From NCBI RefSeq assembly GCF_018977255.1, contig NW_024704742.1, positions 64,420,001 to 64,484,000 of the forward strand: a stretch of 64,000 nt of DNA, given 5' to 3'. Both the position numbers and the translations under genes were made by a program. Below the pieces are notes generated by a model. The model worked only from the letters and a program-made list of their open reading frames with translations, was not told where the DNA came from and did not search any database. This document shows positions 1 through 62,264 of this stretch, piece after piece (positions within the stretch are counted from its first letter, which is position 1; each line of letters opens with the position of its first letter). The stretch comes from Callorhinchus milii (lineage: Eukaryota).

Positions 1-790
1 TGCATTCCTGGTCCTCAGCCTCCTCTTGTTAGGTGGGGTTCCAGAGGCACTGCTTGTCCTCTGATACCTCACTCAAGTAACCATTGTTTCTGTGTAAGCC
101 TTGGCAGTGATTGTCCACAGTCTATTTAACTGACATTGGTCACAGACACGCAATAACCCTCCCTCCCCATCAGACACACAATCAGTAGAGGGTGCTCTAG
201 ATAATAATAATTATAATAATAATCCTTCCATCTGATATAGCGCCTAATCACGTTGTTGAGACGTATCAAAGCACTTCACAGAATATACTGTAAAGTGAAT
301 TGACTGTATATTTTAAGGGTGAAACCGAGCAGCCAATTGCTCACAGCAGTGTCCCACAAACAGTCGTGGATTTTTGGGGGAAGGATTATTATTCCTGGAA
401 AGTGATCCACCAAACAACTAACAACCAGGTTTTGTACTTACTGCTAGGTAAACAGAAGCATATGAAGTAAGGAAATTTACTTTAATAATTTATTACTTTA
501 ATAATAATCATTTTATTTATTAAATAATTTAATAACAATAATAAATTGGTCATTTTCAATCTACGACTGTTTGTGGGACATTGCTGTGCGCAATTGGCTG
601 CCGCGTTCGCCCACAAGTATACAGTCAATTCGCTTTACAGTGTTTTCTGTGAAGCGCTTTGGGACGTCCTCCCGACGTGAAAAGCGTTATATCAAATGCA
701 AGGATTATTATTATTATGAACTTACTTTAGTAATTCATTACTTTAATAATAATAATTTGAAGCACTGCTTGATGCTGGTCATATACATAC

Positions 791-1013
791 ATTGAATGGA
801 AGCAATGGGCAACAGTGAGCACCCAGCAAGGCTGGATAAGAATTCCAACGCAGAAAATATCCCCGTGATATATTGCTGCTAACGAGGGGAAGAAGCCAGA
901 CAAGTCCTCTGACTCTGAAATAATACCCTGACGATTATTTGGTAGTGGTTTTTCATTTCTTCTCCATTTTGAAAGCAGTTGCAAAGGTCTTTCATTATTT
1001 GTGTCGAATAATG
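791..1013 (-). CDS. HGFAC-like exon: linker, degenerate activation site and start of trypsin-like domain ([74 protein letters not shown])
   Basis: Acceptor ttgtgcttcag, donor gtatgt, 223 nt, phase 1-2; His57-motif VAHC with His codon at 805-807. Confidence 0.92.
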
Positions 1014-4000
1014 CTGAAGCACAACAGAAAAATGTAGTTATCTTGAGATAAAACTGAACTTAATAATAAGAATAATCCTTACATTTAATATAGAGCCTTA
1101 TCACGTCTTCAAGACGTCTCAAAGCTCTTCACAGAATGTACTGTAAAATGAAATGATTGTGGGAAACTTGGCAGTCAATTTTTTGCGCAGCAATGTCCCA
1201 CAAACATTAGAAGATTGTGTGACCAAATGTTTTTTTTAAAAGGGATTATTACCCTCAGAAAAGCGATCTGCCAATCGAATAACAACCGGGTTCCTACTTA
1301 CTGCTAGGTAAACAAAGGCATGTGGAGTAAGGAAACTTACACCTAACAATTCGCCCAGCCCGGGAATCAAACTTTTTTTGATGGTAACATAATTTTCCCA
1401 ACTTCACACATTGCATTGAAAATACTGAATATTTGGTATTTGCTTTTGGCTGCTGTACAAAGTTTCTATTTGCTTCATGTCTTACAGTTCTGAATTGTAT
1501 GTTTACATATTTTCAAAGCAACTTTACTAAAAAAAACTTTGTTAAATAAACTAATGTTTAATGGTCATTCTCGACTAACGTTGTCCATCTTACATCTGAG
1601 ACTAACTTCATTTTTTACTGCTGGAATCTTCTGGTTAAGTTAACTCCAGTTAAGTTAACTGGAGTCCTGTAGTTCAGTGGTTAGAGCACTCGCCTTGCAA
1701 GCAAGACACCTGGGTTCAATTCCAGGCAGAGCGAAACCTTGGGCAAGTTTCCTTACTCCACACAGAGCCTAATAATAATCCCTCCAAAAACAAAAAACAA
1801 TAATAAATTGGTCACTTTCAATCCACGACTGTTTGTGGGACACTGCTGTGCGAAATTGACTGCCACGTTTCGCCCACAAATATATGTTCAATTCACTTTA
1901 CAGCATATTCTGTAAAGCGCTTTGAGACGTCCTCCCGACGTGAAAAGCGCTATATCAAATGCAAGGATTATAATTATAATCTAGAAGACGTGAAAAGCGC
2001 TATATCAAATGCAAGGATTATTATTATTGTATATTATAAACCAAGGTCCTCTCGCGAGTGCTCTAATCAATACACTACAGGACTCCACACCAAACTTCCC
2101 ACCAAAATGTGCAACGATAACAATGGCCTGAGCTTGTGGTTGGGATCAGGAGGGGTGGAGGGCAGGGTAGGTAGAGATAGGGGGGTGACCAAAGGTACAG
2201 TTGAAGAGGGTCTTGAGATGGATCTTGAAGGAAGTGAAGGAAGAGGCGATGAAATGAATGGACTGTGGGATGAGGGTGGGGGGCAGAAAGGCTGAAGGCC
2301 CAAGTTTACAGCAACCAAGTGGGAAGAATCCGTGCCCCCTCCTCATGACCGTCTGCCCCTCCGAGTCTTACCATCAACACAAACTGACTGGTGAGTCATT
2401 CATCTGCAGAGCCCTGGGGACTGGGAACTTGCTGTGGCTCAGGAAGTGTCTAACAAGGCTCCGACCCATCATCTCGTCTGATCCAACATCTTGTGACCCA
2501 ATAATGTACAAGTCAACAACAACAACTTGTATTTATAGTGTGCCCTTCATGCGAGAGAGCGCTTAACCATTACATAGTTTAACGTCAAACCGCAGCTAAA
2601 GGGGAGGTGACAGTAGGGACAGTCGAAGAAGAAAATCTTCAGGTGTGATCTGAAGGGGGACAAGATGGAGAGATTGAGGCAGTGAGTTCCAGGTTAGGGG
2701 TTTTCATGGAGGAATCCACTGTTTAAGTCAGCAGCGCTTTTATCAGGGCTTACACCACTTGGCCATTTTCCCTCCCCAATTCAATCCACCTTGGAATATC
2801 CCAATATAGGTTTGACTGAAAGTTCTAAGAAAATAGTCAAGTGGTGTAACCCTTTTTAAAAGCGCTGCTGATGAGAGCAGAAAGAAAAATACACAACACA
2901 AGGGAAGAAATTAATAAAATGATAATTTGTACTGGTTGCACAGAGACATTAAACTTTTCTGGATCTCTCCTGTTCTGTAATAATAATAATCCTTGCATTT
3001 CATATAGTGCTTTTCACATCTTCGAGACACCTCAAAACGCTTCACAGAATATATTGTAAAGTGAATTGACTGTATATTTGTGAACAAAACGCAGCAGCCA
3101 ATTGCACACAGCAGTGTCCCACAAACAGTCATGGATTGAGTGACCAAATTTTTTTTTTTAAGCATTATTATCCCCGGAAAAGCGATCCGTCAATCGACTA
3201 ACAAACAAGTTCCTACTTACTACCAGGTAAACAGAGGCATGTGGAGTAAGGAAACTTGGCCAACATGTCACCCTGCTGAAATGTTATAAATATTATTTAT
3301 AAAATAATATTATTTTATTATATTATTTATAAAATAATATTATTTTATTATATTATCACCCGTAATAATATAATAAAATATTAGAACACTTACCATCAAC
3401 ACCACACTGAGGGATATGGCAATAATTCCAGGACACCTGCCCATTCAGTAGAGTGTAACACCACGGCTGTTCACTGTTGTCAGGGTTTCTACATCAGGGA
3501 GGAAAAAAAAATTCTATACGGAATTTTTCATTCAACAATAAATACAGTACAAGATAATTTACACTTACAGTACTTTTCGTGTCAGGAAGACATTCCAGCT
3601 AGGCACCAGAGTTGAGAGTAAGAATTGAGGAGGATGAGGAGGGGTACAACGACCAAAAGCGTGGTCAGAGAGATACCTTTTGAAATCAATACAACTCCAT
3701 ATGTATTCATTAATTCTTTGTTAAATTATGATATTAAATTGGCCATTCTGGTCCCCACACCCCTTCTTTTGAATTCCAGCTGTCCCTCTGAATTGCTTGC
3801 TCACTCCCTCCCTCCCCAGCCAACACTGGGAAGCACTTTAAAATTTCCTCCCAGCACTTTTAAATTTCTTGTATTGTATTTATTGTTGAATGAAATCAAT
3901 CTAAATATAAATGGTATTGTATTGCAGAATTATTAGTGAGACATATCTTCAAGTCAGAGACATTCAGAAGAATTACTTCAGCTGCCACCAACTTAATCAA

Positions 4001-7000
4001 AGGTGATGGTTCTGATGGTAACTTCTCTACATTGGACAACTTGAATATCCTGGTTCAGTCCATTATTCTTACTCATCCTTCTCTGGTGCTGCTTTGATGC
4101 CAAATCCTGTTGCTTATGAACTACACAAAGTACAAGTGGTGGTCAGAAGTGCACCAGTCCTCCAAATAAGTGAAGCAAGTGAAACAATATAAAAAGTGCA
4201 AAGAAATGGGATTAGGGTAAATTGCTCCAATGGAGGAGTTAGCACCATTATAGGTTTGATAGGCTAAATGGTTTCACAATGCCCCATAATTCCTATTATT
4301 TGCGAAATGTCAACTTATTTTGCCGTTATATATGTTACGAGATGCAAGGTAATTTGTCTTGCCACCTAATATTTCCATCATTTATGAGTGATTCATAATC
4401 ATAGTGTTTATGCCTATTTAGCATAAATATGTTCCATTGGATGGGGCGTCTATAACTAGGGGACACAAGTATAAGATAGTGACTAGGAGATCTAAAAGAT
4501 TTTAAGAAGAACTACTTCACATAGAGGGTAGTGAGATTGTGGAACTTGCTGCCTGAAACGATGGTTGAATCAGATATTATAGATGCATTCAAGAGGAAGC
4601 AAGACCTTCACATGAGGGAAAGCGGAACGGAAGCGTATGGGAGGGAGTAAGGAATGGAGTATAAACACTGGTATGGACTGGTTGGGCTGAGTGACTAGTT
4701 TCCATGCTGTACATTCTTTGTGATTCTTTGTAAAATTGCAATGTTTCCCAACATCAGAGTAAATTATCGCCCACTAGGTGGCAGTGCATTTCATCAGGTC
4801 AATATTTTGTTTTTCTTTATGAAATCCCAGTGACCACCATTTATTTTTATTATGAGGCAAGCGTTTTTTGTTTCGGAAATTTTTGGTCGCCAAGTTTTTT
4901 TATTGTGTAAAACATGTATTTCCTGCATTGGTATGTTAAGGTCAGGTGGAATCCACACACTCCACAGCAAAATATGAATGTTTTACTGACTGATTGGATG
5001 GCTCATAAAAACAATACAGGTATAATAATAATCCTTACATTTGGTATAGTGTCTTTTGTGTTGAGAGAATGACTCAAAGGGCTTAACTGTAAAAATTATA
5101 TATAAACAGAAGTGTAGACTAATGCAAGGCCAATTCGAACTTGGCAATGTCCCACAAACAGCCAAGAAGTGGCTGAGCACAAGATTTCTGGCTCATTTTC
5201 ATTGAAATGGTGGTGGGGAGTGGGGAGTATTGACATGGGTACTTCAAGTAATGCCACTTACATCAAAGATCTGGATTCTTCCACTCAGAGAAAGGCAGCT
5301 CCATTTATAGATAGCACCAAGCTGTAGATAACACTAAGATAGGGGGAAACTATGGCATGAGAGAAAGCAAACAGGATCAGATGTTAGCACTCCCGTTTCT
5401 GAGTCAGAAAGTTGTGGAGCTCCAGCTTCCCCAACACTACATTGAAATGTCAGAGTAGAATGGCCCAAGCTTCATATTGGGACTTTCTAGGCTGACATTC
5501 CAATGTTATTATTATTATTAGTGAGGGGGAGGGGGTCTGTATTGTCAGAGGTGCTATCCTTCGGGTGTGATGTTAAACCAAGGTCCCATCTTCCTGTTCA
5601 AGTCAACAATAAAGATCCCGTACCACTGCTCAAAAAGAGAGGGGTGTTTCTCTTGATGTCCTGGCCAGCAATCCCTCAAATACAAGTAATCAATCACTTC
5701 AAAGCTGTTTGTGGGACATTGCTGTGTGCAAATTGGCTGCAGCATTCACCTACATTACAAAATACGCATGGTAAAATCATTTCAAGCAATTTGAGCATTT
5801 TGATACTGTGATAAGGGGCTGTATCAAAATACAAGGATAATTATTATTATGTATGTCTTTTCACAGAGAGTAATCAACAGTTGGATTGGGTTACCAGAAA
5901 GGGTGGTCGGGAAACTGACTGATAATTTGAGTGAAACCCGGTCAGGGCATTATTTCAATAACAAACACAAATATTGCCCAGCAATGACATCATGAGTTAA
6001 GGTAACTCAGTAGAATATTCACATACAGGGGAAGCCTCTGTGGGAATGTAAAAGGACTAAAACACATAAACTACAGAGTGTCTCGACAATGATAAGATTC
6101 GAGTTGTTTTTGAACAACAGCTGTAAATAATTAGAGCAGAACTAGTGTCCTTGTACTGTCTGCAAATGTATAATGAAGCTTGTGATGATTGAATGCTTGT
6201 CAATCAACAGCAAGAATTGTTTGAGACACGAGTTAAGCATGAGGTGATTGCAAATAATCATGTATATAAACTAATGGGACTGCCCCGTTGTTAGAGGGAG
6301 AGTACCGACTCTTCTGAGAGAGTGCTATTGTACTGCCTCTCGCTTTCCCTCTCCTTGCTGCAAGTATTTGAATAAACTATATTTCTGAGCTAACTCTGTT
6401 TGTGAGTGTTCGTTTAATCCTAGCTATAGCGACATCATCCTGGGTTCGACAGGACACATTAAGCCGGACACATTGGGGTTGGTCGTTTTGTCCAATTTAC
6501 AGTTCGGGGTTAACTGGCATCCAGCTAAAGTGGTTTCCACTGTATTCGTCTCTGTAATTCTAGAGTTTCCTACCTGCAGAAGGAGTGATCACCTAAACCA
6601 AACTGAAGAAGATCATCTGAAGAAGAGATGTTGAACTTAAGTTTCATAAACGGCAGATTCCATTTCATGCAGTAATCGTCTGAAGCAGTCTTGTCTTCAG
6701 TACCTTTATAGCCAACTCCATTATTTTCATAACATTTAGTTAAAACATCTAGATATAAAAACAAATAGTTAGTTCATGGCACACAGCTGTTATCACTAAT
6801 AGTAGTAACAGCAATTCATTACATGCTGGATCCATTCAAATTTTCAAGACTGAGGTTAATAGATATTTGTTAGGTGAGGGTATCAAGGGATATGGGGCAA
6901 AGGTGGGTATCTGGAGTTGAGGTACAGATCAGCCATGATCTTATAGAATAGTGGAACTGGCTAGAGGGGCTGAGTGTCCTAACCTGTTCCTATGTTCTGA

Positions 7001-10000
7001 TATCCGATGATATATGCTATATAGACTGGATAAGTTAGGCCTTTTTTCTCTAGAGAAGAGACATTTAAGAGGAGACCTAATAGAGGAGTTCAAAATTATA
7101 AAAGTATTTAACAAGGTTGTCATAAGTAGGCAGTTTATCACTTGTGGGGGAGTCGATAACCAGGGGACACAAGTATAAGAAAATCTAATGAGAAGTGAGA
7201 ATGTGAAACTCACTGGCCAAAGTGGTGTTTGAATCAGATAGTATAATAATAATCCTTGCATTTGATATAGTGTCATATCGTGTCTTCAAGACATCTCAAG
7301 ACGCTTCACAGAATATTCTGTAAAGTGAATTGACTATATATTTTGAGAGTAAAACATGGCAGCCAATTGCATACAGCCGTGTCCCACAAACAGTCATGGA
7401 TTGAATGATCAATTTATTATTAATTTTTTTTGAAGGAATCTTTACCCCGGGAAAAGCGATCCACCAATCAACCATCAACCAGGTTCCTACTTACTGCTAG
7501 GTAAATAGAGGAGTGTGGAGTAAGGAAACTTTCCCAACATTTCACCCTGCTGAGAATCAAACCAGTTTCTCGCTTGCAAGGCGAGTTCTATAACCGTTGA
7601 GCTACAGGACACCGCAAAAGTATAGATGCATTTAAGAGGAAGCTTAATAGACTTATGAGGAAGAAAAAATAGAAGGCTATGGGGGGGAATAAGGAGAAGT
7701 AGAACTAACATGTAAACATACCTATTTCACAATATTGACCTGCAAAGCCCGCGGCACATTGACAAATAATCTCATTCTTCATTTGGATTATTCTACATTT
7801 CCCACCTTTGAGACATAGATTGATTAGGCATTCTGGAAGTTACAAAAGAGAGAAGGGAAACAAATAATAAAGTCAAATAATCATCTTTCCTTAATCCTTA
7901 CATTTGTCTGACACATGTAGAAACCCATCACCATGTTTAAGAATATCCAAACCAGACTAAAACAACAACAACAACAACAAGATTCCATTTATAGAGCGCC
8001 TTTCACGTCAGGAGGACGTCCCAAGGCGCTGCACAGTTGGGTCATGACCCGAGCAGGGGGGAAATGGTCAGGGTGAGGGGAGGGAAGGGAGGGAGAGAGG
8101 AGGGGGGAAATGGTCAGGGTGAGGGGAGGGAAGGGAGGGAGCGAGGAGGAGGAAGAGAGTCGAGAGGGGAGCTGAAGGCACGGTCAAAGAGAAAGGTTTT
8201 GAGACCGGCCTTGAAGGAGGAAAGGGAGGAAGCGGCGAAGGCACTGGGGGATGGAGTTCCAGAGCCTCGGGGCTGAGAGGCTGAAGGCCCGACCACCGAT
8301 AGTAGGGCGGTTGGGGCGGGGGACGTGGAGCAGACCGGAGCCAGAGGAACGGAGGGTACGGGCAGGTAGGTAAGGGGATAGTAGGTTGGAGAGGTAGGAG
8401 GGAGCAAGGCCGTGAATGGCCTTGTAGGTGAGGATGAGGATCTTGAAATCAATCCTCTGGGGGATGGGGAGCCAGTGGAGGCGAGCGAGGGTAGGAGTGA
8501 TGTGGTCCCGAAGCCTGGTGCGGGACAGTACACGAGCTGCAGAGTTCTGAATGACCTGCAGCTTGTGGAGGGAGGTGCCGGGAAGGCCGGCGAGGAGAGA
8601 GTTCCCATAGTCCAGCCTTGAGGTGACAAAGGCGTGAACCAGGGTTTCAGCAGCGTGAGGGGTGAGGTAGTGCCGTAATCTGGTGATATTCCGGAGGTGA
8701 TGGAAGGCGGTGCCAGTTGTGGTGCGGATGTGAGGGAGAAAGGACAGCTCAGGGTCCATGGATGTATTCCACTTGGACAAGGACATTTCCCTAAATCTGA
8801 AAGGGAGTACACATTCTCTCCCAGGAGGTACATGTCCTGCTTACCTAATTCCGGAGTATTAGACGTAGGTTGGCAAGAGACAAGGTTTGGGGATCCCAGA
8901 ATGTGTGTTGTGATAGTGCTGCAGTTTAACCTCATAGCTTGCCATTGAAAGCCCTGTCTGATAAGCTTCTCTCTGCATGTCCAGCTAGAACCAAACTACA
9001 TATTTATTACCTTTGGCTTGCAGGATTAACAGGAGCAAAGCGGGAAGAATTCCTAACCCCAATGAGTGGTCTGGCTCTCCAAGTGCTAGAGCCATGAGCC
9101 AGTCTGGCTAGCTTGTCGTCATCAATGTGCAGGAATACTGTGGAGCCATCTAGCTCAGGAACTGGACTACCACAGAGGGTTGCCTTGACTCCAAGCATTC
9201 TGTTGCCAAGCATGGCACCTCAGAACCAGCTCAGCTCCATGGAGACCCAGCTTGCCTCCGCTCCTCCAAGGAGAATAGTGGCAAGAGTTTTTACTAATAC
9301 CTTTGGACTTTACAGTTTGACAAGAAGACACGCTTTTAGTGCACTGGCAACTTTCAACATCATTCCCATTCATTCGGATCCAGGATTCTCCTTCAATGAA
9401 GAACCGGTATATTGATTTGTCAAAGCAGGTTTCTGGAAAACGCAATAGAAGAACAAGCTGCTTTTAGGGTATATACTGAAATCAAATTTTCAGCTCCGGT
9501 AATCACAGTACAGTGTAATCCCAAAGTATAATCTCCCAACCACATCACCCACATCAGACCTGAACGAAAGGCTTCTCTGGCGAGAAATTTTGGGCACTTC
9601 CCTGTCAATTAAATAATTTGAAAGTAAGGAAGAAAACGTAAGACATATTTCATTAAAATACTTGAACCCCTAAATTCTGCAGGGTTTTCTTTGGGATGGA
9701 ATTTGGACCTCCGTCACTACATCTCCCCTTGGGCCAATGAAACAATTATAAAATACTTGCGGAACTATCTCTTCCCTCAGACTGCTGAGACTCTCATCTA
9801 TGCATTCATTATGTCAAGGCTTGACTACGATAACTCCCCGTTATCCAGACTTACCAACTTTTTCCTCCACAAAGCTGTAGATCATTCAGAATTCTGCAGC
9901 TTGTATCCTCTCCCGCACTAAGCTTCATGAGTTGATCATCCTTGTCCGGCTTCACTGGTTTCCCCAACTCCCAGACAATCGAGTTCAAGATCCCTGTCCT

Positions 10001-13000
10001 CACTTTCAAACCCATCCATTGGCACTGGCCTGCTCCATGTCCACACCAGTGGAGGTCAGGCCTTCAATCTTTCTGCTCTCACCCTCTGGAACTCTATCCT
10101 GGAGCCCCTCCACCTCTCCCCCTCCCTTGCCTCCTTCAAGGCCAGTCTCAAGACCTTCCTCTTCGTCCGTGCCTTTGGTCATCTTTCCCACCCCCAACCC
10201 CATTGCTCTACATCCCTCCTGATTCCAATCTCTTCACTGTCCAGCACATTGGGACGTTCTCCCAATGAGAAAAATAATAATAATAATCCTTGCATTTGAC
10301 ATAGCACTTTTCACGTCTTCAGGTCGTCTCAAAGCGCTTCACAGCATATACTGTAAAGTGAATTGACTCTATATTTGTGGGAGAAACATGGCAGCCAATT
10401 GCGCACAGCAGTGTCCCACAAACAGTCGTGAATTGAGTGATCAAATAATTATTTTTTTCTTGAGTGGGGGGTGGTGGGGGGGTGATGGGGATGGATTCAG
10501 GTAACGAGTACCAGAGGTTCGGGGCCAAGTTGCCGAAAGCTCAGCCATTGATGGTGGTGCAGAATGGTCGGAAAACACACCTGTGCTATCTGAGCGAAAG
10601 GGACAGCAGAGGAGTGGGGTATGAGCAGGTTCAGTCAGGGAGCTGGAAATCCAGCTAGAGACATTCACAGCAATAAAGCATGGTGAGGGTGCCAGCATGT
10701 TTGGCAAAGAGAGCAATCTGCCTGGCCAGGGTGCCAGACTGTGTGGTGAAGGTGGCAGTGTGTGTGGCGGTGGTGGCAGTGTGTGTGGCGGTGGTGGCAG
10801 TGTGTGTGGCGGTGGTGGCAGTGTGTGTGGCGGTGGTGGCAGTGTGTGTGGCGGTGGTGGCAGTGTGTGTGGCGGTGGTGGCAGTGTGTGTGGCGGTGGT
10901 GGCAGTGTGTGTGGCGGTGGTGGCAGTGTGTGTGGCGGTGGTGGCAGTGTGTGTGGCGGTGGTGGCAGTGTGTGTGTGGGGGAGGTGCCTTTGTTATAAA
11001 TAGAACAAAAATAATTTTCCACACAGTAGTAAAAGCTATCTACCGATGGGCATTGACCAAACAAACGAAAATAGTCTTATTGATCGCTTTGACGAGTAAG
11101 TCAAATTGATCAGTGAGCGAGTATTAATTTTCTTTTCTTTTTATTACAATTTTTGCTTTTTTGTTTACTCCTTTTTTTTTTACTAATTCCTAATGATTAA
11201 ACATTTTTTAAATCAAAAAACTGTGAAATCCGAAGCGGAGCTTTACTCCCATACCTTCCTCACAGTGACTTCCTGTAAATTCTGGCCTACATATGCAATG
11301 GTAATTGTTTGCAGTTTCAAGTTTCATGCAGGTGCCTTCGTTTTTACATGGCTGGTAATAGCAGGGGTCTGTGCAGAAAAAACAAAGTTAAATGTCATTG
11401 CTGTGCATTCTATTTCCATTAACTCATATCCCACATATTTAATGATCCACTCGTAACCCTTTTACCAAACACATGTCATAGTTACTGCAAATGTTACTCC
11501 TCTGTACAAAAAGGGGCAAAAGGATAAACCCGGGAACTACAGGCCAGTCAGCCTAACGTCAGTAGTGTGTAAACTTCTAGAAACTATAATCCCGGACAAA
11601 ATAAATTGTCACTTAGAATAATATGAGTTAATAAAGGACAGCCAACACAGATTTGTTAAAGGTAAATCATGTCTAACGAACCTGATAGCAGTCTAACAAA
11701 CCTGATGAGTTTTTTGATGAAGTAATGGAGAGTGTGGATGAAGGTAGTGCAGTTGATGTAGTTTATATGGATTTTCAAAACAACAACAACAACTTGGATT
11801 TATATAGCGCCCTCCACGCCGGACGGTGTCCCAGAGCACTTTACAGTAACGGATCCCGGGGCCGAGCCAGGGGCAAAGAGAAGAAGGTGACCAAGGCGCG
11901 GTCAAAAAGAAAGGTCTTCAGCAGAGACCTGAAAATGGGGAGGGAGCGAGACGAAAAAAGTGAGGAAGGCAGTTCCAGAGCCTCGGGGCACAGTGGCTGA
12001 AGGCACAGCCGCCGAGGGTGGAGTGGAGGACTCGGGGGACGAGGAGGAGACCAGACCCGGAGGAACGAAGGCAGCAGGTACTGTTTTGAGGAGAGAGGAA
12101 GTCAGAGAGGTAAGGGGTTGCAGAGGAGTGCAGGGACTTGAATACAAGGGTGAGGACCTTGAAATCGATCCTCTCTGGGATAGGCAGCCAGTGCAGTCTG
12201 GCACGGACTGGGGTGATTGGGGAGCGGAGTTTTGTGCGGGTGAGAATGCGGGCGGCAGAGTTTTGAATCAAAAGGCGTTTGATAAAGTGCCACATAAGAG
12301 ACTTGTAAGCAAAATAGAAGCCCACAATATTAAAAGGACAGTGGCAGCATGGATACAGAACTGCCTGGGAGACAGAAAGCAGAGAGTGGTGGTGAACGTT
12401 ATTTTTCTGACTGGAGGGAAGTGTGCAGTGGTGTCACCCCAGGGGTCGGTATTAGGACCACTGCTGTTTTTGATCTATATAAATGACCTGGACTTGGGTA
12501 TAGGGAATACAATTTCCAAGTTTGCAGATGATACTAAGCTAGGAAAAGTCGTAAATCGTGAAGAGGATAGTAGCAGATTGCAAAAGGACATGGACAGACT
12601 GGTAAAATGGGCAGACAGGTGGCAGATGAAGTTTAAAGTGGAGAAATGCGAAATGATGCATTTTGGGAGGAAGAATGAGGAGAGGCAATATAAGCTGATG
12701 GTACAATCTTAAAGGGGGTGAAGGAACAGAAAGACCTGGGAGTTCATATAAGTAAATCTTTGAAGGTGGCAGGACAGGCAGATAAAGCTGTTAAAAAAGC
12801 ATATGGGATACTGGGCTTTATAAATAGGGGTATAAATTGCAAAAGTCAGGAAGTTATGGCCTCAGCTAGAGTATTGTGTTCAGTTCTGGGCTCCACACTT
12901 TAGGAAGGATGTCAAGGCATTGGAGAGGGTGCAAAGGAGATTTACCAGGATGGTACCAGGAATGACGGGCTTCAGTTATCAGGAGAGGCGAGAGAGGCTA

Positions 13001-16389: not shown

Positions 16390-16421
<32 letters not shown>

Positions 16422-19400
16422 TGTCTGTGCTTGGGACATTGCTCTGTGCAATTGGGCTGCCACAAGCACCTACAAATACAGTCACTACACTTCCCAGTAA
16501 ATCCTGTAAAGTGCTTTATAATGCAAGCACCATCCATCCATCCACATTTTATCTTATTTCTCTTATTTTATAAATATCCTCTACTTATATATCTTATCTT
16601 TGAATCCATCTGTCTAAAGATCTTTAATCACATATATCAACCAACCAATCTAAACCTAGTCATTGTTGATCTATCTCTAACCTATCTATCCATTTATAGT
16701 GTATCTATCTCTGGTCTAGCAATCTATCTCTAGTCCAGCTATACTTAGGTTTCTCAGTTATTTGTTTAACTTTGAAGCCAGAAACCAGATTAGTTTATTC
16801 AGATTACATTTTATTTATTTATGAATGTAACCATTATTCTTTTATGTCTTTTAGTTTGTTTGTGGAGTCATTCCATGTGGCTTAAAGTATCAGCATAGAC
16901 TCAATGGACAAAAGACCTGTTTCAGTGCAGTATTATTGGATGATTCTATGATTTCTTTAAGAGACAAATAAGTTTGATTAATACTTTAAAACTGGATTAA
17001 AAAAACTGTTACAGACAATTTAATTCTGTTTTCTTCACTGACTGTAATGCATCTGTTAATATGTGGTTAGGGTGGTATTTGCTATTACAATTATACATTG
17101 GAAGATTCACTATGCCTATACCTCTTCTATATTTAGTGATCCGGAGAAATGTTTCACTCATATCAAAGGTGATTGGTGTGAGCTGAACGTGTAACAAAAC
17201 AGAGAACAGACATTACAATATCACAAGAGTGATTCAGATGAAGAAGGCCCTTTAGCCCATTCTTCCAAAATACCTACACACCCTTCCCATCACAGATCCG
17301 ATTTTTTTTTAAAAAAAAACATAAGTTTAGGTTGATCTGTGACAGAATCCTGGCAATCAGTTCCAGTTGTTTTTCACCCTGGGTAAAAAAAAAATCCTGG
17401 TCTCATCCTGAAATTGCTCTTTGTAACTCTGAACCTATGTCCTCTTTTGCTACTGTCTTGGAGCATCCTAAAGTGTTGATCTGGGTTTACTTTTTTAATC
17501 CCATTCAAAATGTTACTCACCTCTATAAGGTCCTTTCTGTAACTCTTGTATGTTGCGTTGACCAGAACTGTACGCAGTAGTCTAGCCGTGGCATAACTAC
17601 AGCACTAAATAGCTTGAGCTTGACGTTGGGAAATCTAGATTTCCCAATTGATCTCATCCTTCCAGAATGTTTCCAGATGTCCTGAAATTGTCATTTGCAG
17701 CCCTAAACCTATGTCCTCTTATTCTGCTGTCTTAGTTCACCTAACATAATTGGATTTGGTTTACTTTCTCAATTCCATTTGACTCAGAAGGTCTGTTCTA
17801 ATACGTCTCCTTTGTATCCTGAGAGTTGGAGCTTGTCTAATTGTTGCTCATAGCTCATTCCTCTAATACTAAGGATCATCCTCATTGTTCTCCACTGCAC
17901 TGTCTCTAGGACATCCTGTTTGCTCTGCTTATTGCTGCCTCACACTGTTTTGAGCAAATGGTGAGTGACAGGTCACCTTAAACCCCAAGATCTCTTTCAA
18001 ATTCCCCCTTCAGTAATTCTATCCCTTCCAATGAAATACATGTGTTTCCTATTTGTACTTCCTATGTGCAGTGCCTTACACATATCTGTATTGAACTTCA
18101 TTTGCCAGTCATCAGCAAACTCGAAAATGATTAAAAGATACACATCTCAGCATTTCACACTTTTGGAAACGAAAATGCAACAACATATAGCTCCTTTCAC
18201 AGAAGAGAATGTCTTGAAGAACTTTATATGGACAGTAACAACAACAAGATTACATTTGTATAGCGCCTTTCATGTCAGGAGGATGTCCCAAGGGGTTGGA
18301 CAGTGTACAGCATTTCAGACCCGAGCTGGGATTCGGGGAGTAAGGGAGGGAGGGGAAGGGGGGTGACTGATGGCATGGTCGAAGAGGAGGGTCTTGAGGC
18401 GGGACTTGAAGGAGGCTAAGGAGGGGGTGAGGCAGAGTGACTGGGGATGGAGTTCCAGAGGTTGGAGGCAGAGTAGCTGAAGGCTCTCCTGCCAATGGTG
18501 GGGCGGGTGGGTCGGGGGACATGGAGCAGGCCAGAGCCGGCTGAGCGGAGGGAACAGGTGTGTTGGTAGGGGGTTAGGAGGTCGCAGAGGTAGGGTGGGA
18601 TGAGGTCATGGAGGGTTTTGTATGTGAGGACCAGGATCTTGAACTGGATCCTCTGAAGGATAGGGACCCAGTGGAGTCGGGCGAGAGTGGGGGAGATGGG
18701 GTCACAGAGTTTGGTGCGGGAGAGGACACATACATACATTCAATGTATCAAACATAGAACAAAGTGGGAAGGAGGGAGGTGTAGGAAGTAGGTAGAACCA
18801 AGAAGCATAAAGATTTACAGAACAGAAGAAGGTAATTTGGCCCATCGTGTCTGTGCAGGCTCCCTCATGAACAATCCTTTCAGCCCCATCAACTGCCCTA
18901 TCCCCATAGCTCTGTAGCTAAATCTTTTTAAGGCATTTGTTTGGTTCCCTCTTAAAGACCAATGTGGATTCTGGTTTAACTTCAGGTGACTAAAAGCAGA
19001 CATAACAAGGTAGGTTTCGAAACAGATATTTTTGGAAGCCAATGAGAGGAGGGATTTGGGAGGGATTTCCAGAGAATGGGGGTCTAGTTTATGAAAGCTT
19101 TGCACCACTCCGCTATGATCAAAGAATTCTACTGAATTTCTTAACGTGAGATTTATTCCTTCAGTGAGAAAGTCATTACTGAAAATGAAATGTTCAATTC
19201 ACTCACCATACATTGGGCAAGGCGAAAGTTTACAGTAATCCCAAGAGGTACGATTATTCTGCCGAATATAACACCAGGGCTTTATATCATTGTCTGGGTT
19301 TCTGCAAGAATGAAAAGACAATTGCTTATTAGGGAATTCCCTCAAACGTAGTCCCCTATCCCACAGAACTTTACAGTTACCCATGTCAGCCAGCGTTCAG

Positions 19401-22400
19401 AGGTGCCATTACCAGTGGAGTCCTATAGCTCAGTGGTTAGAGCATTTGCTTTGCAAGCGAGAGACCTGAGTTCAATTCCAGGCAGAGGGCGAAACCTTGG
19501 GCAAGTTTCCTTACTCCACACACCTAATAATAATCCCTCCAAAACCCAAAACAATAATAAATCGGTCATTTTCAATCTACTGTTTGTGGGACATTGCTGT
19601 GCGTAATTGGCTGCCGCGTTCGCCCACAAATATACAGTCAATTCACTTTACAGTGTGTTCTGTAAAGCGCTTTGGGACGTCCTCCCAACGTGAAAAGCGC
19701 TATATCAAATGCAAGGATTATTATTAATTATTATTATTATCACCACCATCACCACAACAACAAAATGACATTTGTATAGCGCCTTTCATGTCAGGAGGAT
19801 GTCCCAAGACACTGGACAGTCAGTGTTTCGGACCTGAGCTGGGGGTCAGGATTGTGGAGGGTAGTGGGAGAAGCAGGGTGATCGAAAGCACGGTCCAAGA
19901 GGAGCGTCTTGAAATGGGTCTTGAAGGAGGCAAGGGACGGGGTGAGGCGGAGGGACTGCAAGATGGTGGGTGCAGAGTGGCTGAAGGCCCACCCGCCAAT
20001 ATTGGGGCAGGCGAGGCGGGGGACGTGAAGCAGGCCATAGCCCAGGATAGTAGGAACTTAGGAGGTCGCAGAGGTAGGGAGGAGCAAGACCACGGAGGGT
20101 TTTGAAAGTGAGGACTAGGATCTTGAACTATATCCTCTGTGTGATGGGAAGCCAGTGGAGTCAGGCGAGGATGGGGGTGATAGGGTCACGGTGCCTGGTG
20201 CGGGAGAGAACACAGACTGCAGAGTTCTGGACGATCTGCAGCCTATGGAGGGAGGAGTTGGGGAGGCCGACAAGCAGGGAGTTTGCATAGTTAAACCTGG
20301 ATGTTATGAATGCATGTATGAGGGTTCTGGCAGCTTGCGGTGTGAGACAGTGGCGGAGCTGGGCAATGTTGCGGAGGTGCGGGAAGGCGGAGCGGGTCAT
20401 GGCGCATATGTGGTGTAGAAAGGATAATTAAGGGTCAAACAAGATGCCAAGGTTTCGGACTGGCTTAGTGAGGTGGAATGTGCAACCATGGATGGTGACG
20501 CTGTCAGCGCCTGAGGTGTGGAGGCGCTGACGGGAGCCAATCAGGAGAGCCTCAATCGTGTTGATGTTCATCTGAAGAAAGTTAAGAATATTTGGTGATA
20601 ACATATCTGGCTATATAGCAATCCTTGAATTTTGATATAGCCTTTCATCAAGATCTCGAAGTGCTCTCCGCAATAAAATGAAAAGTGGTGAGACTATATA
20701 CATTTTGTGGTGAACCAGCAGCCAAATTGCACACAACAATGAACCTCAAACAACCATGAAATGAGTGACCAATTTTATTTGGGGTATTGTTGGCCAGGAC
20801 ACCCAGAGAAATTCCCTATAAATATTTCAGGTCTGTAGACCTGAAACGTTAACTCATTTTCCACTCTCCATAGATGCTGCCTGACCTGCTGCATGTTCCC
20901 AGCAACTTCTGTTTTCATTTCAGATTTCCAGCAGCTATAGTATTTTGCTTTTTGTAGATAGCTATTTGTTAGGTCGGGGTATTAATGGATACAGGGCAAG
21001 GGTGGGTAACTGGACTTGAGGTACAGATCAGCTATGATCTTCTAAAATGGTGGAACAGGCTCAAGGGGCTGAATCGCCTGCTCCTGTTTCTATGTTTCTA
21101 TGTCTCAAAGACATGATAAGGAGCTATATCAAATGCAAGGATTATTGTGTTTCGAAGCATGAGGGCAGAAAACTATTTTGAAAAACATTGAATTACTCTG
21201 AATGCCACTTAATAAACTCACAGATGACCACTATGTATATTTATATTTGCTTCCCACCTGCAGAAAGAATGACCCCCAAGCCCGAGTTTCTCCGCTTCCT
21301 CCACGTCGGTGATATTGTGCATGTGGCTCAAAAATTCAAATGTTAAAGACAGGCAGTCATGGCCTAATTCTGTTTTTGATAGAATCCCTCTGTATAATGT
21401 ACCTTGCTTTTCATAACACTGATCAATTACATCTGCAAAATAAATAGTAAATATTGGGTACCAGAACACTAAGCACACTAAGATGTGCTTACAACATAGC
21501 AGATTTGTGTCTACGGGGCCAGGCATTGTTGGAGGCAGAGCTTTGAGGTAAATCATTAGCAGTGGACATACAGTGTGCAACGTGCAGACCAGACCAATCC
21601 TTACTTATTGATAGGTCAGAGTATGAACTGTATACACACACCAATCCATTAACATCCCCAACTCAACCCACCCACGACCCACATCCCAACCAGCCCACCC
21701 ACTGCACACTCCCATTCACCTCACCTGCCAAGCACTAATGACACACTCCACACACACACGTGCACCTTTTAAATCACCCCACCACACACGCTCGCACCCC
21801 CTAACTCACACAACCCACAGGTGCACATATCCCCAACCTTCCCCATCAGCGTGCCCCAAAATACGAGCAAAGCATCTTGCTTGAATGTAAAGGTGCATTG
21901 TTTGTTGTAGCCATACCTAATTCACAATATTTTCCAATAAAACCTTTCTGGCAATCACACGCAAAGTACTTTCTCATGAGTACCGAGTGGCACTTTCCTC
22001 GATGAAAACACATTTTTGGGTTGCAAGCTGGAAGAGACACATACAATGGAAATACACAATTAATGAACAATAATATGAGGCTTACTTCTAGCCAGTATTG
22101 ACATTTACTGCAATTTTAAACCTGATCAATTTTATGAATTTTAAATATTTAATGCCATTAAATATCACTAATAATATCATACTTTTATTTGAGATAACAC
22201 AGATTTACATATATTGTACAATACAGAAACAGGCCGTTTGGCCCAATCAATCCACATTGGTGTTTATACTCCACATATGTCTCCATCCATTCTCCTCCCA
22301 TACCCTTCTTTTCCCTTCTCCCTTATTTTATTTTGTTCCGTCGGGTGTCTAACACGTGCGGAATACCCATGACTATCCTTTAGGTGTATATATATCTTCC

Positions 22401-25400
22401 TCTTACATAACAACAATAATAAAATTACATTTGTAAAGCACCTTTCACGTTGGGAGGACGTCCCAAGGTGCTGAACAGTCAGGGATCAAGATCCGAGTGT
22501 GGGGGCAGGGTTGGGATGAGGGAGGGCAGTGGGGGTAGGAGGGTGACTGAAGGCACAGTCAAAAAGGAGGGTCGTAAGTTGTGCCTTGAAGGAGGCAAGG
22601 GAGGGAACAAGGGATTGTAGGGTGGCGCTGCAAAGAGTGGGGACAGAGAGACTGAAAAGCCCGGCCGCTGATGGTAGGGTGGGTCAGGTGGGAGACATGG
22701 AGCAGGCCGGAGCTTGCTGAGCGTAGGGAGTGGACAGGTTGATAGTGGGTCAGCAGGTCAGAGATGTAGGAGGGGTCAAGGCCGTGGAGGGTCTTGAAAG
22801 TGAGGACGAGGATTTTTAATTCTGTCCTCTGAGGGATGGGGAGCCAGTGGAGCCGGGCGAGGGTGGGGGTGATGGGGTCATGGAGGCTGGTGCAGGAGAG
22901 GACACGAGCTGCAGAGTCCTGGATAATCTGCAGCTTGTGAAGGGAGAGTTGGGGAGGCCGACAAGGAGGGCATTTCCGTAGTCGAGCCTTGAGATAACAA
23001 ATGAATGAGGGTTTCAGCAGCCTGAGGGGTCAAACCTTGGCTCTTGCCAACCTGCGCCTAATACTTTCTGGAATTAGGTAAACAGGATGTGTTCCTCCAG
23101 GGAGAGAGTGCGCATTTCATTCCAACAATCTATCTCTGGGATTTCCAAGTGTTTGTGGGATGCAGGGAAACTCAGCTTGGTTAATTTATTTTCATGACAC
23201 TGCGGTGAAGTAAGGACTGACACAAATGTTTAATATCGTTTAGAAACTAAGCATTGGTGTAATTTGTTAGGTTATATTTAGTGAGTTGGAGATTGATTGT
23301 TGGTGTATACTGATGGGATGGAGTTAATTATACTGAGACATCGCAGTTATACCAGTCAGCAAATAATATGTCCTGTATAAGTGGACATATTATCAGATAG
23401 TGTCTGATCCCATTTCATGGCTAATAATCATAGGGACCTTCATTTACTTCATTAGCGCCATCCTCTGCTTTCTTATTTACTTGTTTATTGACAAGAAAAG
23501 ATGTGTTGGAGAGGCAGAAGTCAAAGTGACAGAACTTGAACTTCAGAATGCCCTAACCGGAGAAGGAAGAAATTGGAATTTGGAGTCACGAACCATATTC
23601 GAGCTTCTAAAGAAAGAAGATCAAGACGACGATTTAAACAACACTAAATGTACAATAACACCTTGATATCTTTGGGTGATATCAAACTGGAAACCGTACA
23701 ACAATAATTGGATACCTTTTGAGGACCATATTTGGATTCAAATGGGACATTAAATTGGACATTGCTCATGTGTCAGACACCCGCCTAACCAAAAAAAATC
23801 AATATTATAAAGGTAATATTTCTACAGGCAGCAGATTACCAGGGGGCTAAGTGTGCACAGCACTGTAATATTTGTAGAGTTACCTTCAGATATTAAGGTT
23901 TGATAAACAATCCCGGTATTAGTGCAGATGCTTCTTTGAGCCTTGCCATTATAAATCCGTGTCCACGTTTCTCCTATCCGGTAGTGTTTCAGGTGCTTTA
24001 GTTCAAAACACTTTTCTAAGAAGAAAAAGCAATTATTGAATAAATTGAAGCACAAAACGTGATGCAATGGTAATATGATCATAACATTTCTCATTTAATT
24101 TCTGAAGATTTCATTTTATCAAAGAATATGGCCTACTCCTGCTCCTAATTCTTCTTCTTATATCAATGGCTGTTTGTAGGAGACTGCTGTATACAAATTG
24201 GCTGCTATGTTTGCCTACAAATACCTTGGAACTGAAGTAAAGTCCTGCGAAGTACTGTGTGATGCCTCGACAGGATGATAAGGTACTATGCCAAAATGCA
24301 AGAAGTATCAATATTAAACAACAGCACAGAAAACTATGTTACAAACTGTATCCGCACAGGTAACAATGCTGTTTTAAATATTACACTGGAAATTAATTTG
24401 ATTCAGTTGATCGATATTTGATTTGATGATTCATCGATATTTGAATAATAATAATCCTACAATTCTTGCCTTTGATGTAGCGCCTCATCACATCAAATAA
24501 TCTCAAAGTGTTTCACAGGAATTACTATAAATTGTAGTGATTGCATGACTCCATGTTGTTTTCTTGTACAGCTGAGATTCGGAGACACTGCATCGATGTA
24601 GATTGTTCACCCAATAGGGGTGAATGCTGCGCACAGATTACAGCATAAGGGGTTAAATAAATAAAACTCGTGCATGTTGAGTCCTGTAACTCAGTGGTTA
24701 GAGCAAGCAAGTGCATCTGAGTTTGATTCCCAGCAGGGCGAAACGTTGGGCAAGTTTCCTTATTCCACAAGCCTCTGTTTATCTATCAGTAAGTAGGAAC
24801 CCAGTCGTTAGTCAATTGGCGGATCGCTTTTCTGGGTATAATAATCCCTTTGAAAAAATGTGATCACTCAACCCATGACTGTTTGTGGGACACTACTGTG
24901 TACAATTGGCTGCCGCATTTCACCCACAAAATATACAATCAATTCACTTTACAGTATATTCTGTGAAGCGCTTTGAGACATCTCAATGATGTGATAAGGC
25001 GCTATACCAAATGCAAGGATTATTATTATTTACAGGTGAATGCAGCAACCGATTTTTACACAGCAATGTCCAACAAGGTCCTACCAATTTCATACAGCAA
25101 TACAACACTCCTGACAATATAGAACCCACTCCCCCACCCCCACCAGTACTCTGGTGGAGTGCTGGGGGAGTTTCCGCAACATCGGAGGTGCTGTCCTTCA
25201 GATGAGATGTTAAACCAAAGTCTCGTCTGTCTGTTCAAGTGAACGTTAAAGATCCCAAGGCACTATTCAAAAAGAGAAGAGAGTTTCTCTCAGTGTCCAG
25301 GCCCAATATCATCCAAATAAAATTGATTACTCACTCACTCCACTCCGTGGAGTCCTGTAGCTCAGTGGTTAGAGCACTCACTTTGCAAGTGAGAGACCTG

Positions 25401-28400
25401 GGTTCAATTCCAGGCAGACAGGGCGAAACCTTGGGCAAGTTTCCTTACTCCACACAGAGCCTAATAATAATCCCTCCAAAACCCAAAACAATAATAAATT
25501 GGTCATTTTCAATCTACGACTGTTTGTGGGACATTGATGTGCGCAATTGGCTGCCGCGTTCGCCCACAAATATACAGTCAATTCACTTTACAGTGTGTTC
25601 TGTGAAGCGCTTTGGGACGTCCTCCCGACGTGAAAAGCGCTATATCAAATGCAAGGATTATTATTATTGCTGTTTGTGAGACATTGCTATGCTCAAATTG
25701 GTTGCTACATCCACCAACGAAATAGACACTGTTACATCACTTTACTGTAAATCCTAAGTTTAGAGATGTCTCGACAATGTAATAAGGTGCTATATCAAAT
25801 GCAAGGATTATTATTATTACAAACAGCCAGGAGGTGATTGATCAATTTAACTGGAGGATTGTTGACCGGGACTTTGGGAAAAATTCTCCTCCCCTTTCCA
25901 ATAATGTCATGGATTTTTTAACATTCATCTGAACAGGTGGGACCTCAATTTCATATTGCAGAGTTACTTATCAATTTGTGGAAGCACACCTCTAAGGTTG
26001 GATCTATTGAGTAAGAAAACTAAACAATATTGTTGATTGGAAACTAGCTGTTGAATCAAGTAAAGGAAAATATCCATTTACATCACATCCATTTGAATTT
26101 GCCGTTAAAAACGTTTAATTTTAAACAGGACATTTTTATAATAATAATCCGTGCATTTGATATAGCACCTTATCACATCATTCCGATATCTCAAAGTGCT
26201 TTACAAGATGTACTGTAAAGTGTCCAACAATTCTGTGTATTTTGTGGGTGAAACGTGGCAGCCAATTGCACACAGCAGTGTCCCACAAACAGTCGTGGAT
26301 TGATATACCACCCAAAACTTTTGAGGGATTATTAATGGAAAATGATCCTCCAATCGACTAGCAACCGAGTTCCTGTTTACTGCTAGGTAAACAGGCGTGC
26401 GGAGTAAGGAAACTTGCCTAAGGTTTCGCTCTGCCCGGCAATTAAAACTAGGTCCTCTTGCTTGCGAGGTGAGCACGCCAACTACTACACTACAGGACTC
26501 CGTCATAAGATAATGACATGTAGGATTATTGGGATAGGCTTGAAAAATTACATCTGTTTCAATGGGCACAGAGGTGTTTCAGAGGAGATCAAATGGAGAT
26601 CTTCAAAACTCTGAACCATTTCGAGAGCATTTCAGTTTGAAAAGAGAAACAAAATATAGTTCATAAAAAGAACTATAGAAAAACAGCTTCTAAAGTAGGA
26701 CGGAATTTAAAAATCTTGCAAACTTTCACACAACTTGAGTATTTAAGAATACAGCCTTTAGGCTGAGACTGCAAGAAATTTCAGGCCTCGGATTCCAGGA
26801 CACATTTCTCAGAAGAGGACTCGCTGAAACGAAAATTGTTAGGTGTTTTCATTGACTGTTTCTTTTTGTAGCATTCAGTATGGTATTTGACTGTTCCAGA
26901 CAAAAACTAAACATCGTTGCTTTCTCAAGATGCATGTTTGTTACTTACCAGTCTCACAGTGTAGGCCTTCATACTTCTCTGAACAGATACATCTGTAGGT
27001 GTCCTGTCCAGGAAAATCAATACAGAATCCATTGTTTTCACAGATAACGTTTTCACAAAATTCTGAAAAAAAATTGCCAAATGAATACAGTCTCCTTTAA
27101 AAAGTTGAGGGTTTAAGCCCCTTGTTGGGACTTTGAATTCACATAGTATAAAGTATTTAAACTGTCCTTGTCTCTTACAATCCTAAATCGGATGACCCTC
27201 CAGTGTAGCTCTGGGGTGTGCTGTATTGTTGGATGTGCCATCCTTCAAATTGGACATTAAACCGAGGTCCTGTCTGTGCCTGTCCCATGACACTTCTCAA
27301 AAGGAGAAGAGAGTTTCTCCTGGTATCCTGGCAATCAATCCTCCAAATAAAGTTGGTCATTCATTTCATGCCTGCTTGTGGGACACTGCTGTGTGCAAAT
27401 TGGCTGCCGTGTTCATCCAAAAAATTCACACAGTGGATATACACAAGTATATCCTGTAAAGCACTTTGAGATGTCTCAACCACATGATAAGGCACTAGTG
27501 TATATCAACTGCAAATGATACTCAATTACTATTGTGAAGATTGTCTCAATAACATATCCTGCTGCTGATGAAATCTTTAAACCACTCAAACAGGCAGACA
27601 GAACCTTTGTTTTCATATCCAAAGGGCTGCAGCCCCAACTATGCAGTGCTCCCTCAGCATTATAGTGTTAATCTAGACTGTATGAGTTCTGAAGTCCTAA
27701 CATGGGGCTTGAACCCACACCTTTCTGAGGTGAGAGTGCCACCAACTGAGCCAGGCTGACGCACGACAGCCAATTTTGTAATTGTCTTAAATTCAAAGTG
27801 GAATTTCAAGCCCCAGGAAACAAATTACACATTCAGCCAAATATCAAATGCAAGGATTATTATTTTATTATTATAAATGTCTGACTGAAGATACTGGAAC
27901 TGAAACGTTTTACCTGTTGATATCAGCACTGAGTCTTTGCAAAAGCCCCTCAAAAGATCAGCATCAAAGTCAGGTGTAGTGGCACACCTGAAATAGAGAG
28001 CAACAGATTGGGCTTCTCATGCTTCCAGAACCCCACCCTACCATCTCCCCAGTCACATCAAGCTACTTATTAAATGAATCCCAGTGCCCTCTCCTCTACA
28101 ACTTTTCCTGGCAGCCTGTTTGAGTCATTGATTATGCTAAGCAAACCTTCCTGGTTTCTGTCCTGAGATTGCGCTTTACAACTCAAAACTGATGTTCTCT
28201 TGTTCTTCTCTCTTGTCGCATCTTAAATTGATCTGGGTTTATTTTCCCAATTCCATTTACAATTTTGTACATCTTTATGAGATCCCCACTGTCTGTTCTC
28301 AAGACCGAAGAGCCTTAGCTTGTCTCGCCATTGCTCATAGCTTATAGCTCATTCCTTTAACACCAAGGATCATCCTCATTGCTCTACTCTACAGGAGCAA

Positions 28401-62189: not shown

Positions 62190-62264
62190 GAGAAAGAAGA
62201 AAGAAATTTAGGAAAACCATCTTCAGTTAAAGAAAAAGGAGATAATGGAAAATCTTCCAAAGAT
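62190..62264 (+). pseudogene. RGS12: Truncated RGS12 pre-GoLoco exon (EKEERNLGKPSSVKEKGDNGKSSKD) broken at a duplication junction
   Basis: tactag acceptor; resembles RGS12 EERTLGKSNSIKIKGENGK; from 62263 the sequence switches to a copy of 50660 onward, reading to TAA at 62361-62363. Confidence 0.75.

Follow-up and report, generated by a model that had tools for sequence, protein, structure and literature searches.

The 64,000-nucleotide stretch of the Callorhinchus milii genome analyzed here (the window; contig NW_024704742.1, positions 64,420,001 to 64,484,000) carries on its minus strand part of a gene that we read, at a probability of roughly 60%, as the genome's single HGFAC orthologue, turned into a non-activatable, single-chain pseudo-protease that has been retained to do something other than catalysis. 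In plasma, HGFAC activates HGF and MSP, and coagulation factor XII descends from it. The evidence consists of substitutions at the activation site, the inter-chain disulfide and the active site, an intact gene model that runs from an FN2 module to the stop codon, a single-copy, syntenic position in the genome, and one exon-exon contig in an RNA-like sequencing run.

The activation site lies in exon P1 (window 791..1013, minus strand), which encodes the linker, a degenerate activation site and the region around His57, has an AG acceptor and a GT donor with fitting phases, and belongs to a minus-strand open reading frame (727..1059) that contains the peptide cited in the original prediction. The best match of this exon among solved structures is human HGFAC (1ybw_A, E 1.3e-10), and the Pfam Trypsin profile also matches it (E 6.1e-7). 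In the 1ybw_A alignment, FLRPR/IIGGSSSLPGSHPWLAAIY of HGFAC stands opposite the exon P1 stretch, with glycine in place of the arginine at the P1 position of the cleavage site and IISE in place of IIGG. We further aligned the last 310 residues of the gene model with those of 120 relatives (HGFACs and a few factor XIIs); residue numbers throughout follow chymotrypsin numbering. The P1 glycine (GGT, 925-927, minus strand) falls in a column that is arginine in 120/120 relatives, and a Ser-Glu pair (913..918, minus strand) replaces Gly18-Gly19, which are glycine in 117/120 and 119/120 relatives, respectively. The site reads Gly-Ile-Ile-Ser-Glu and does not conform to the Arg-Ile/Val-x-Gly-Gly pattern of the family. 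The codon for His57 is retained (805-807, minus strand; AHC motif; His in 119/120 relatives). At the place of the HGFAC linker cysteine, 14 residues N-terminal of the P1 residue, exon P1 has a tryptophan codon (TGG, 964-966, minus strand), and the entire linker of the gene model is devoid of cysteine; the linker cysteine column is C in 119/120 relatives, and MAFFT placed in it the lysine adjoining the tryptophan, not the tryptophan itself. When recounted from the sequence and the exon frame, the codons for Trp, Gly and His57 lie exactly where the original prediction had put them, and its claim that the P1 residue is glycine and that Gly-Gly has become Ser-Glu is confirmed by both the 1ybw_A and the 120-relative alignments.

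The rest of the protease domain is encoded outside the window. In 40 kb of left flank we located four further protease-like exons, 0.3-4 kb left of the window, all of them on the minus strand, in frame and with GT-AG boundaries: P2 (C1:64419534-64419673, where C1 denotes the contig that holds the window), P3 (C1:64419297-64419437), P4 (C1:64417581-64417720) and P5, which includes the stop codon (C1:64415996-64416178). Exons P1, P4 and P5 score above the cut-off of Pfam Trypsin (PF00089); P2 and P3 taken singly have no Pfam match, and the best solved-structure match of P3 is HGFAC. The 120-relative alignment indicates that His57, Asp102 (EYDIGLIRL), Asp189, Asp194, Ser214-Trp215-Gly216 and every intradomain cysteine are retained, and the profile match together with the retention of 10 of the 11 conserved protease-domain cysteine columns assigns the domain to the chymotrypsin fold. 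The catalytic triad (His57-Asp102-Ser195) is incomplete, with His and Asp present and isoleucine (codon ATT) at the place of Ser195. This residue is part of a GDSGGP motif that has become VDIGGP, with DIGGPLVC opposite D-x-GGPLVC of the tPA, F12 and HGFAC chains, so that Gly193 is replaced by valine as well. Gly193 forms the oxyanion hole of chymotrypsin-fold proteases and Gly226 the wall of their S1 pocket. The latter is glutamine here (PGVYT to PQIYT; LPQIYT opposite VPGVYT), leaving the oxyanion hole and S1 pocket altered at both positions, with Gly216 retained. Finally, Cys122 is replaced by arginine (FVKTVRLV opposite FVQPICLP of HGFAC 2r0l_A). Its partner, the linker cysteine, is lost too, which leaves the inter-chain disulfide without either of its ends. 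The original prediction had singled out Asp102, Asp194, Ser195 and Cys122 for inspection in the downstream exons; the two aspartates are retained and the other two residues are replaced by Ile and Arg. The observation from which that prediction started is confirmed, and its proposal of a non-activatable or pseudo-protease is supported by downstream exons that show dead catalysis in addition to the lost cleavage site.

These substitutions suggest how the encoded protein would behave. Activation by the trypsin-family route would be impossible, the P1 arginine being glycine and any new N-terminus having to read IISE. With neither cysteine of the inter-chain bridge left, a two-chain molecule cannot be held together, and no catalysis is to be expected because Ser195 is Ile, Gly193 is Val and Gly226 is Gln. 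Given the loss of both the cleavage site and the disulfide, the product should stay single-chain. The fold itself appears to have been kept by selection, to judge from the open frame, the canonical splice sites, the full set of intradomain disulfides and the majority of the invariant core residues. The product would be a secreted single chain locked in a zymogen-like state and, if it works at all, may serve as a binder, decoy or cofactor by way of its nine binding modules and its protease-shaped domain, in which case the activation of pro-HGF and pro-MSP in this lineage would fall to other proteases. We advance only tentatively, at somewhat less than even odds, the more specific proposal that the sole chimaera HGFAC stayed under selection as it changed from a zymogen to a permanently single-chain, non-enzymatic plasma protein.

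The complete gene model comprises 17 exons with 17/17 AG acceptors, 16/16 internal GT donors and fitting phases, and encodes 749 codons with one terminal stop. Its layout, FN2-EGF-FN1-EGF-K-EGF-FN1-EGF-K-protease (K, kringle), is colinear with nine elasmobranch HGFACs; the full alignment included nine of 12 such proteins, P0139, P0143 and P0148 being omitted for their odd or shortened N-termini. Searching the 74 kb locus (10 kb of left flank plus the window) by tblastn with the hepatocyte growth factor activator of Heterodontus francisci (XP_067885357.1, 812 aa; P0109), the closest relative with a name in the protein library search, recovered every module in order, and Pfam identified fn2, EGF, fn1, EGF, Kringle, EGF, Kringle and Trypsin on the exon translations, the second FN1 (FN1-2) and the fourth EGF (EGF-4) coming from tblastn. 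The original prediction had considered the loss of activity together with the doubled binding modules. A link between the two does not hold, since catalytically canonical elasmobranch HGFACs share the layout, and the doubling of EGF, FN1 and kringle in elasmobranch HGFAC is already described in a passage of PMC6337849.

All module exons lie on the minus strand and each is bounded by AG and GT. The most upstream exon found (28717..28813; Pfam fn2 E 5.6e-7; P0109 residues 54-88) encodes the first half of FN2, and the second half follows, in fitting phase, at 27914..27987 (P0109 87-109), with 4/4 FN2 cysteines kept. The first module block continues with EGF module 1 (26949..27062; Pfam EGF E 4.8e-6; 6/6 Cys), FN1 module 1 (FN1-1; 23884..24015; fn1 E 8e-5, below the cut-off; 48% identical to P0109 149-200), EGF module 2 (21917..22027; Pfam EGF E 7.9e-6; 6/6 Cys) and kringle 1, which is split between 21258..21432 (Pfam Kringle positions 1-52) and 19207..19301 (Pfam Kringle E 3.7e-11) and keeps 6/6 cysteines. 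The second block begins with EGF module 3 (11255..11368; Pfam EGF E 2.5e-6; 49% to P0109 320-358) and goes on to FN1 module 2 (9301..9432; 47% to P0109 360-408; genome fn1 match at C1:64429338-64429427; 4/4 Cys), EGF module 4 (7722..7832; 59% to P0109 402-438; 6/6 Cys) and kringle 2, again in two parts (6574..6748, Pfam Kringle positions 1-52; 3394..3488, Pfam Kringle E 2.7e-10; 6/6 Cys). The FN2 exon at 28717..28813 enters in phase 1, and the gene must therefore have one or more coding exons further upstream.

Cysteines are well preserved across the whole model: 56 of the 59 cysteine columns conserved in at least eight of the nine elasmobranch rows are retained, and the three losses are the linker cysteine, Cys122 and a cysteine of FN1-1 (2/3 columns kept, two cysteines in all) that has no fourth partner in elasmobranchs. 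All nine aligned elasmobranch HGFACs are without the fourth FN1-1 cysteine and are left with an odd one, which the gene described here has lost too. Under the C1-C3/C2-C4 pairing of FN1 modules, the lost cysteine is the unpaired one. We considered the two-cysteine FN1-1 as a sign of decay and rejected it, because the fourth cysteine is already absent in elasmobranchs and it is the unpaired one that has gone here.

Sequencing reads from independent sources carry the same letters as the assembly. Runs X2, X3 and X5 belong to one study and have an even, DNA-like depth, and run X1, from another study, is RNA-like. Contigs of X2, X3 and X5 cover positions 4894-5300 of the searched locus L036 (window 694-1100; L036 position equals window position + 4200) without any other letter, and a contig of X1 covers window 863-1013 without difference. 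The five protease exons are free of listed variants, with the nearest one (L036 3723) in an intron, and none of the about 20 differences listed over 10 kb, much of which is repeat, falls in a coding exon. Sequencing error had been named as a way in which the original prediction could fail; the altered codons are real, with the same letters in four runs from two studies. In the 3' flank, at L036 58 (C1:64415858), all four runs have A where the assembly has C; either the assembly is wrong here or the individual assembled carries a private variant.

Run X1 also provides evidence of transcription. Its record 2 (188 letters, depth 3) runs from L036 294-375 straight on to 1778-1883, so that P5 and P4 meet without the 1.4 kb intron between them, and it includes the Ile195 codon; its three-letter offset from the exon ends reflects an ambiguity, GTA being the first three letters of both exon P5 and the intron. 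Record 5 ends precisely at the acceptor of P1, apart from 27 letters that lie elsewhere, and record 1 continues past P5 into the 3' flank for 375 letters or more. Depth in unique intron bins is 0-2 in X1 versus 15-30 in X2, X3 and X5. Since exon P1 is single-copy in the genome, a processed DNA copy is an unlikely source of the X1 contigs.

Comparison with the 120 relatives reveals how deviant the protease domain is. The model alone departs at Arg15, Cys122, Gly193, Ser195 and Gly226, each of which is the usual residue in 120/120 relatives, and it is also alone in its departures at Gly18, Gly19 and the linker cysteine (frequencies as given above). Of the protease-domain columns with an invariance of at least 97% among the relatives, 69 in number, it keeps 54 (78%) and departs at 15; leaving out each relative in turn gave 0 departures as the median and never more than 8. 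At the 163 variable columns the model has the majority residue at 50 (31%) and differs at 113. The model is far more deviant than any relative, and its invariant places are nevertheless much better kept than its variable ones. Identity of the protease domain to elasmobranch HGFACs is 39-43%, compared with 62-71% between shark and ray, and the linker is about 10% identical and six residues shorter in comparison with the shark protein. When neutral evolution was simulated (substitutions only, no indels), about 0.11 changes per site were needed to reach the 22% residue change observed at the invariant columns, and at this divergence 0/2000 frames were stop-free and about 13 of 56 cysteines were lost. 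Measured against this simulation, the open frame and the surviving cysteines suggest that selection was still acting on frame and disulfides as the critical changes accrued.

The most serious competing explanation is a young unitary pseudogene, in which HGFAC became dispensable, constraint was relaxed, and the gene, still transcribed and open by luck, is now being lost. We consider this unlikely, and several observations nonetheless speak for it and weigh against a retained role. Every module has accelerated: the path from the model to elasmobranchs is 3.45 times the shark-ray path in the protease domain and 2.22 times in the N-terminal modules, where about 1.4-1.5 is expected from divergence times, and the protease end branch measures 1.34 changes per column versus a median of 0.12, in a tree built with 25 of the 120 relatives for which the tool warns that the placement of so long a row is unsure. 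Fast evolution of the whole gene fits relaxed constraint as well as it fits a new role. The 15 changed invariant columns point in the same direction, as does the kringle-1 tryptophan after the second cysteine, which is present in 9/9 elasmobranch rows and is leucine here. Neither a start codon nor a signal peptide nor the 5' exon was found by tblastn with 12 elasmobranch N-termini or by a crude scan for an ATG, a hydrophobic core and a donor, and no library protein carries exon P1. Transcript support amounts to three contigs of a single run whose RNA nature is the tool's guess, and at a neutral divergence of 0.02 as many as 11% of simulated frames are still stop-free. For C. milii, supplement 2 of PMC6337849, a study of this gene family, lists habp2, hgf, mst1, plg, tPA and uPA, and no hgfac. 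Recent death of the gene after a selected phase is conceivable.

A young pseudogene is difficult to reconcile with the time that many changes at otherwise invariant residues require: there is yet no stop, frameshift or broken splice site in 17 exons, 56/59 cysteines survive where about 13 losses would be expected at a divergence of 0.11, and two of those lost belong to one and the same bridge. The open frame, the retention of cysteines, the invariant columns kept and the exon-exon contig speak, indirectly, for a functional pseudo-protease rather than a pseudogene. We infer from the many changes, the intact frame and the survival of the cysteines that, even if the gene is dead now, it went through a long phase as a selected non-catalytic protein.

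A second explanation, which we regard as improbable, is that the gene is a lineage-specific paralogue and that the canonical HGFAC is missing from the assembly or misassembled in it. The assembly searched is in 1762 contigs (991.5 Mb), the genome searches score the best candidates exon by exon, and in the protease tree the model is not grouped with elasmobranchs, a placement that the tool marks as unsure. Module order and best matches, on the other hand, are those of the HGFAC group: the 11 top full-length matches in the protein libraries are HGFACs of elasmobranchs, which align colinearly for about 750 residues (39-45% identity), and the doubled layout is shared with elasmobranch HGFAC. The chromosomal neighborhood is also that expected of HGFAC. 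The gene is preceded on its own strand by an RGS12-like gene (GoLoco exon at window 53482-54204; RBD at C1:64500940), and exons of the LRPAP1 family (Alpha-2-MRAP_C) lie about 60 kb downstream (C1:64354207-64355991), in agreement with the human gene order RGS12-HGFAC-DOK7-LRPAP1; an IRS domain of the DOK7 type was not found near the gene.

Nor did we find a second candidate within the scope of these searches. A genome-wide fn1 profile scan (35/35 candidates scored, 17 matches at E <= 1) disclosed no second HGFAC-like set, its matches falling on a fibronectin cluster of 12 modules (C6), on both FN1 modules of the HGFAC gene and, weakly, on three other places, one of them in a uPA-like gene on C7; a genome-wide fn2 scan, with 50/50 candidates scored, revealed no other split FN2. 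In a search with the activation exon of shark HGFAC, the best matches are 40-52% identical, and those inspected, on C1311, C31, C11 and C7, proved to be other proteases. A reverse genome search with P0109 gave no better HGFAC-like locus. The gene on C7 (C7:10334503-10339839) is a canonical uPA-like gene, FN1-EGF-kringle-protease with GDSGGP, and corresponds, save for three residues compared by eye, to uPA-like_callorhinchus_milii as it appears in the supplement of PMC6337849. The original prediction had raised the prospect of a canonical HGFAC adjacent to this gene; none adjoins it or was found elsewhere in the assembly, and this gene itself occupies the HGFAC slot. The position between the RGS12-like and LRPAP1-family genes and the lack of a second HGFAC-like gene lead us to conclude that it is the HGFAC orthologue. 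Its product is not among the library proteins: a word-based protein search with exon P1 gave no match, a full-library search with the same exon gave 119 matches with no orthologue among them (best full-domain identities about 40-43%), and, as no library protein scores between 1127 and 724 bits, the interval into which the gene product at 742 bits would fall, it is absent from both protein libraries.

That the protein is still a working protease, cut at an unusual site such as WRR/N or NNR/QG or else active in single-chain form, we hold to be very improbable. His57, Asp102, Asp189 and Asp194 are retained, the linker offers basic sites, and single-chain tPA does have activity. Set against this, Ile195 leaves no nucleophile, valine stands at the place of Gly193, Gln226 would fill the S1 pocket, and VDIGGP offers no adjoining Ser or Cys. 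An artefact, whether sequencing or assembly errors or the use of a canonical alternative exon, is hardly credible: nothing was found in its favor, four runs from two studies agree over exon P1, eight critical places in four exons are changed, and tblastn with shark HGFAC gives one match per exon in the 74 kb locus, with no alternative canonical R-IIGG exon seen beside the single match for exon P1.

Several features of the locus are recorded here in their own right. The GoLoco motif upstream is encoded in an open frame of 241 residues (window 53482-54204, minus strand) that, taken with the RBD on the same strand, resembles the 3' terminus of an RGS12-like gene. Window 50660-52397 and 62263-64000, which lie 11,603 bases apart, share a stretch of 1,738 bases at 100% identity, the second copy running off the window end, and the GoLoco exon occurs twice with equal scores (C1:64474106 and C1:64485709); the explanation is a tandem duplication of very recent date, last RGS12-like exon included, or else an assembly artefact. 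Within the gene, the intron between FN1-2 and EGF-3 contains a long tandem repeat (window 10690-11000) that is open in six frames (PPPHTL, HTATTAT and VCGGGGS series), and two intronic frames are reverse-transcriptase-like (11933-12712 and 29451-30194, both on the plus strand). A short interspersed repeat is present in very numerous copies (for example at window 640-760, 1950-2050 and 16250-16420), with word depths of 10^5-10^6 in the reads. The single strong match to an elasmobranch N-terminus is likewise a repeat, here an intergenic one (window 40341-40574, minus strand; 54% to the N-terminus of P0148, E 5.6e-20), which suggests that the annotated N-terminus of P0148, an HGFAC-like protein of Hemiscyllium ocellatum, is transposon-derived.

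In PMC6337849, HGFAC is regarded as a protease that works, and is conserved, throughout the jawed vertebrates, and it is placed in 'cartilaginous fish (elasmobranchs)'; the bioRxiv preprint 10.64898/2026.10.23.761479 uses the canonical horn-shark HGFAC. Literature searches on an HGFAC pseudoprotease and on HGFAC, cartilaginous fishes and factor XII evolution brought up no dead HGFAC among the titles listed. Here, the sole HGFAC copy of a basal jawed-vertebrate lineage has lost all features of activation and catalysis in a clean 17-exon gene, which raises the question of which protease activates HGF in these fishes. Should the gene be a selected pseudo-enzyme, it would offer a natural case of a zymogen becoming a binder and could tell which parts of the fold matter without catalysis; should it be dying, it would date a lineage-specific loss of HGFAC and explain a survey without hgfac for Callorhinchus milii. 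Either way, the picture of the family's early history is corrected. If the conversion from zymogen to non-enzymatic plasma protein is true, it would be a second, independent transition from protease to binder in the kringle-protease family after HGF/MSP, by the opposite route, with the activation site and the tether lost rather than kept; activation of pro-HGF and pro-MSP would proceed wholly via other proteases, and the protease-shaped domain and the nine modules would serve a new partner.

Among known systems, the closest is the HGFAC of elasmobranchs, exemplified by P0109, which has the same module order and doubled EGF-FN1-EGF-kringle block (44% identity, 742 bits in phmmer) and, like the gene described here, a first FN1 module without the fourth cysteine. 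The shark protein, however, has CGKRGKKGPKPR/IVGG, SLCLP and GDSGGP, and the chimaera gene is without all three. Mammalian HGFAC and factor XII (1ybw, 2r0l, 4xde) share the FN2-EGF-FN1-EGF-kringle-protease plan and the gene neighborhood. Their module block is not doubled, and they are genuine zymogens, cut at Arg-Ile/Val and with a disulfide-tethered heavy chain; in the gene described here the activation site, the tether and the nucleophile have all disappeared. HGF and MSP (MST1) are kringle-bearing pseudo-proteases that derive from a plasminogen-like ancestor, contain a PAN domain, act by binding and have changed both His57 and Ser195. They resemble this gene in being kringle-protease genes turned non-catalytic, and differ in still needing cleavage and keeping the inter-chain disulfide, whereas here both are lost and His57 is kept. 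Protein Z, a vitamin-K-dependent pseudo-protease with Gla-EGF-EGF modules, serves as a serpin cofactor with ZPI and factor Xa as partners. It is likewise a modular protein of the clotting type whose trypsin-like domain has neither catalysis nor an activation cleavage, but it has other modules, belongs to another parent family and has known partners. A further loss of catalysis in the kringle-protease superfamily, known from comparative genomics, concerns an extra copy beside a working one, whereas in C. milii it is the sole copy that has changed.

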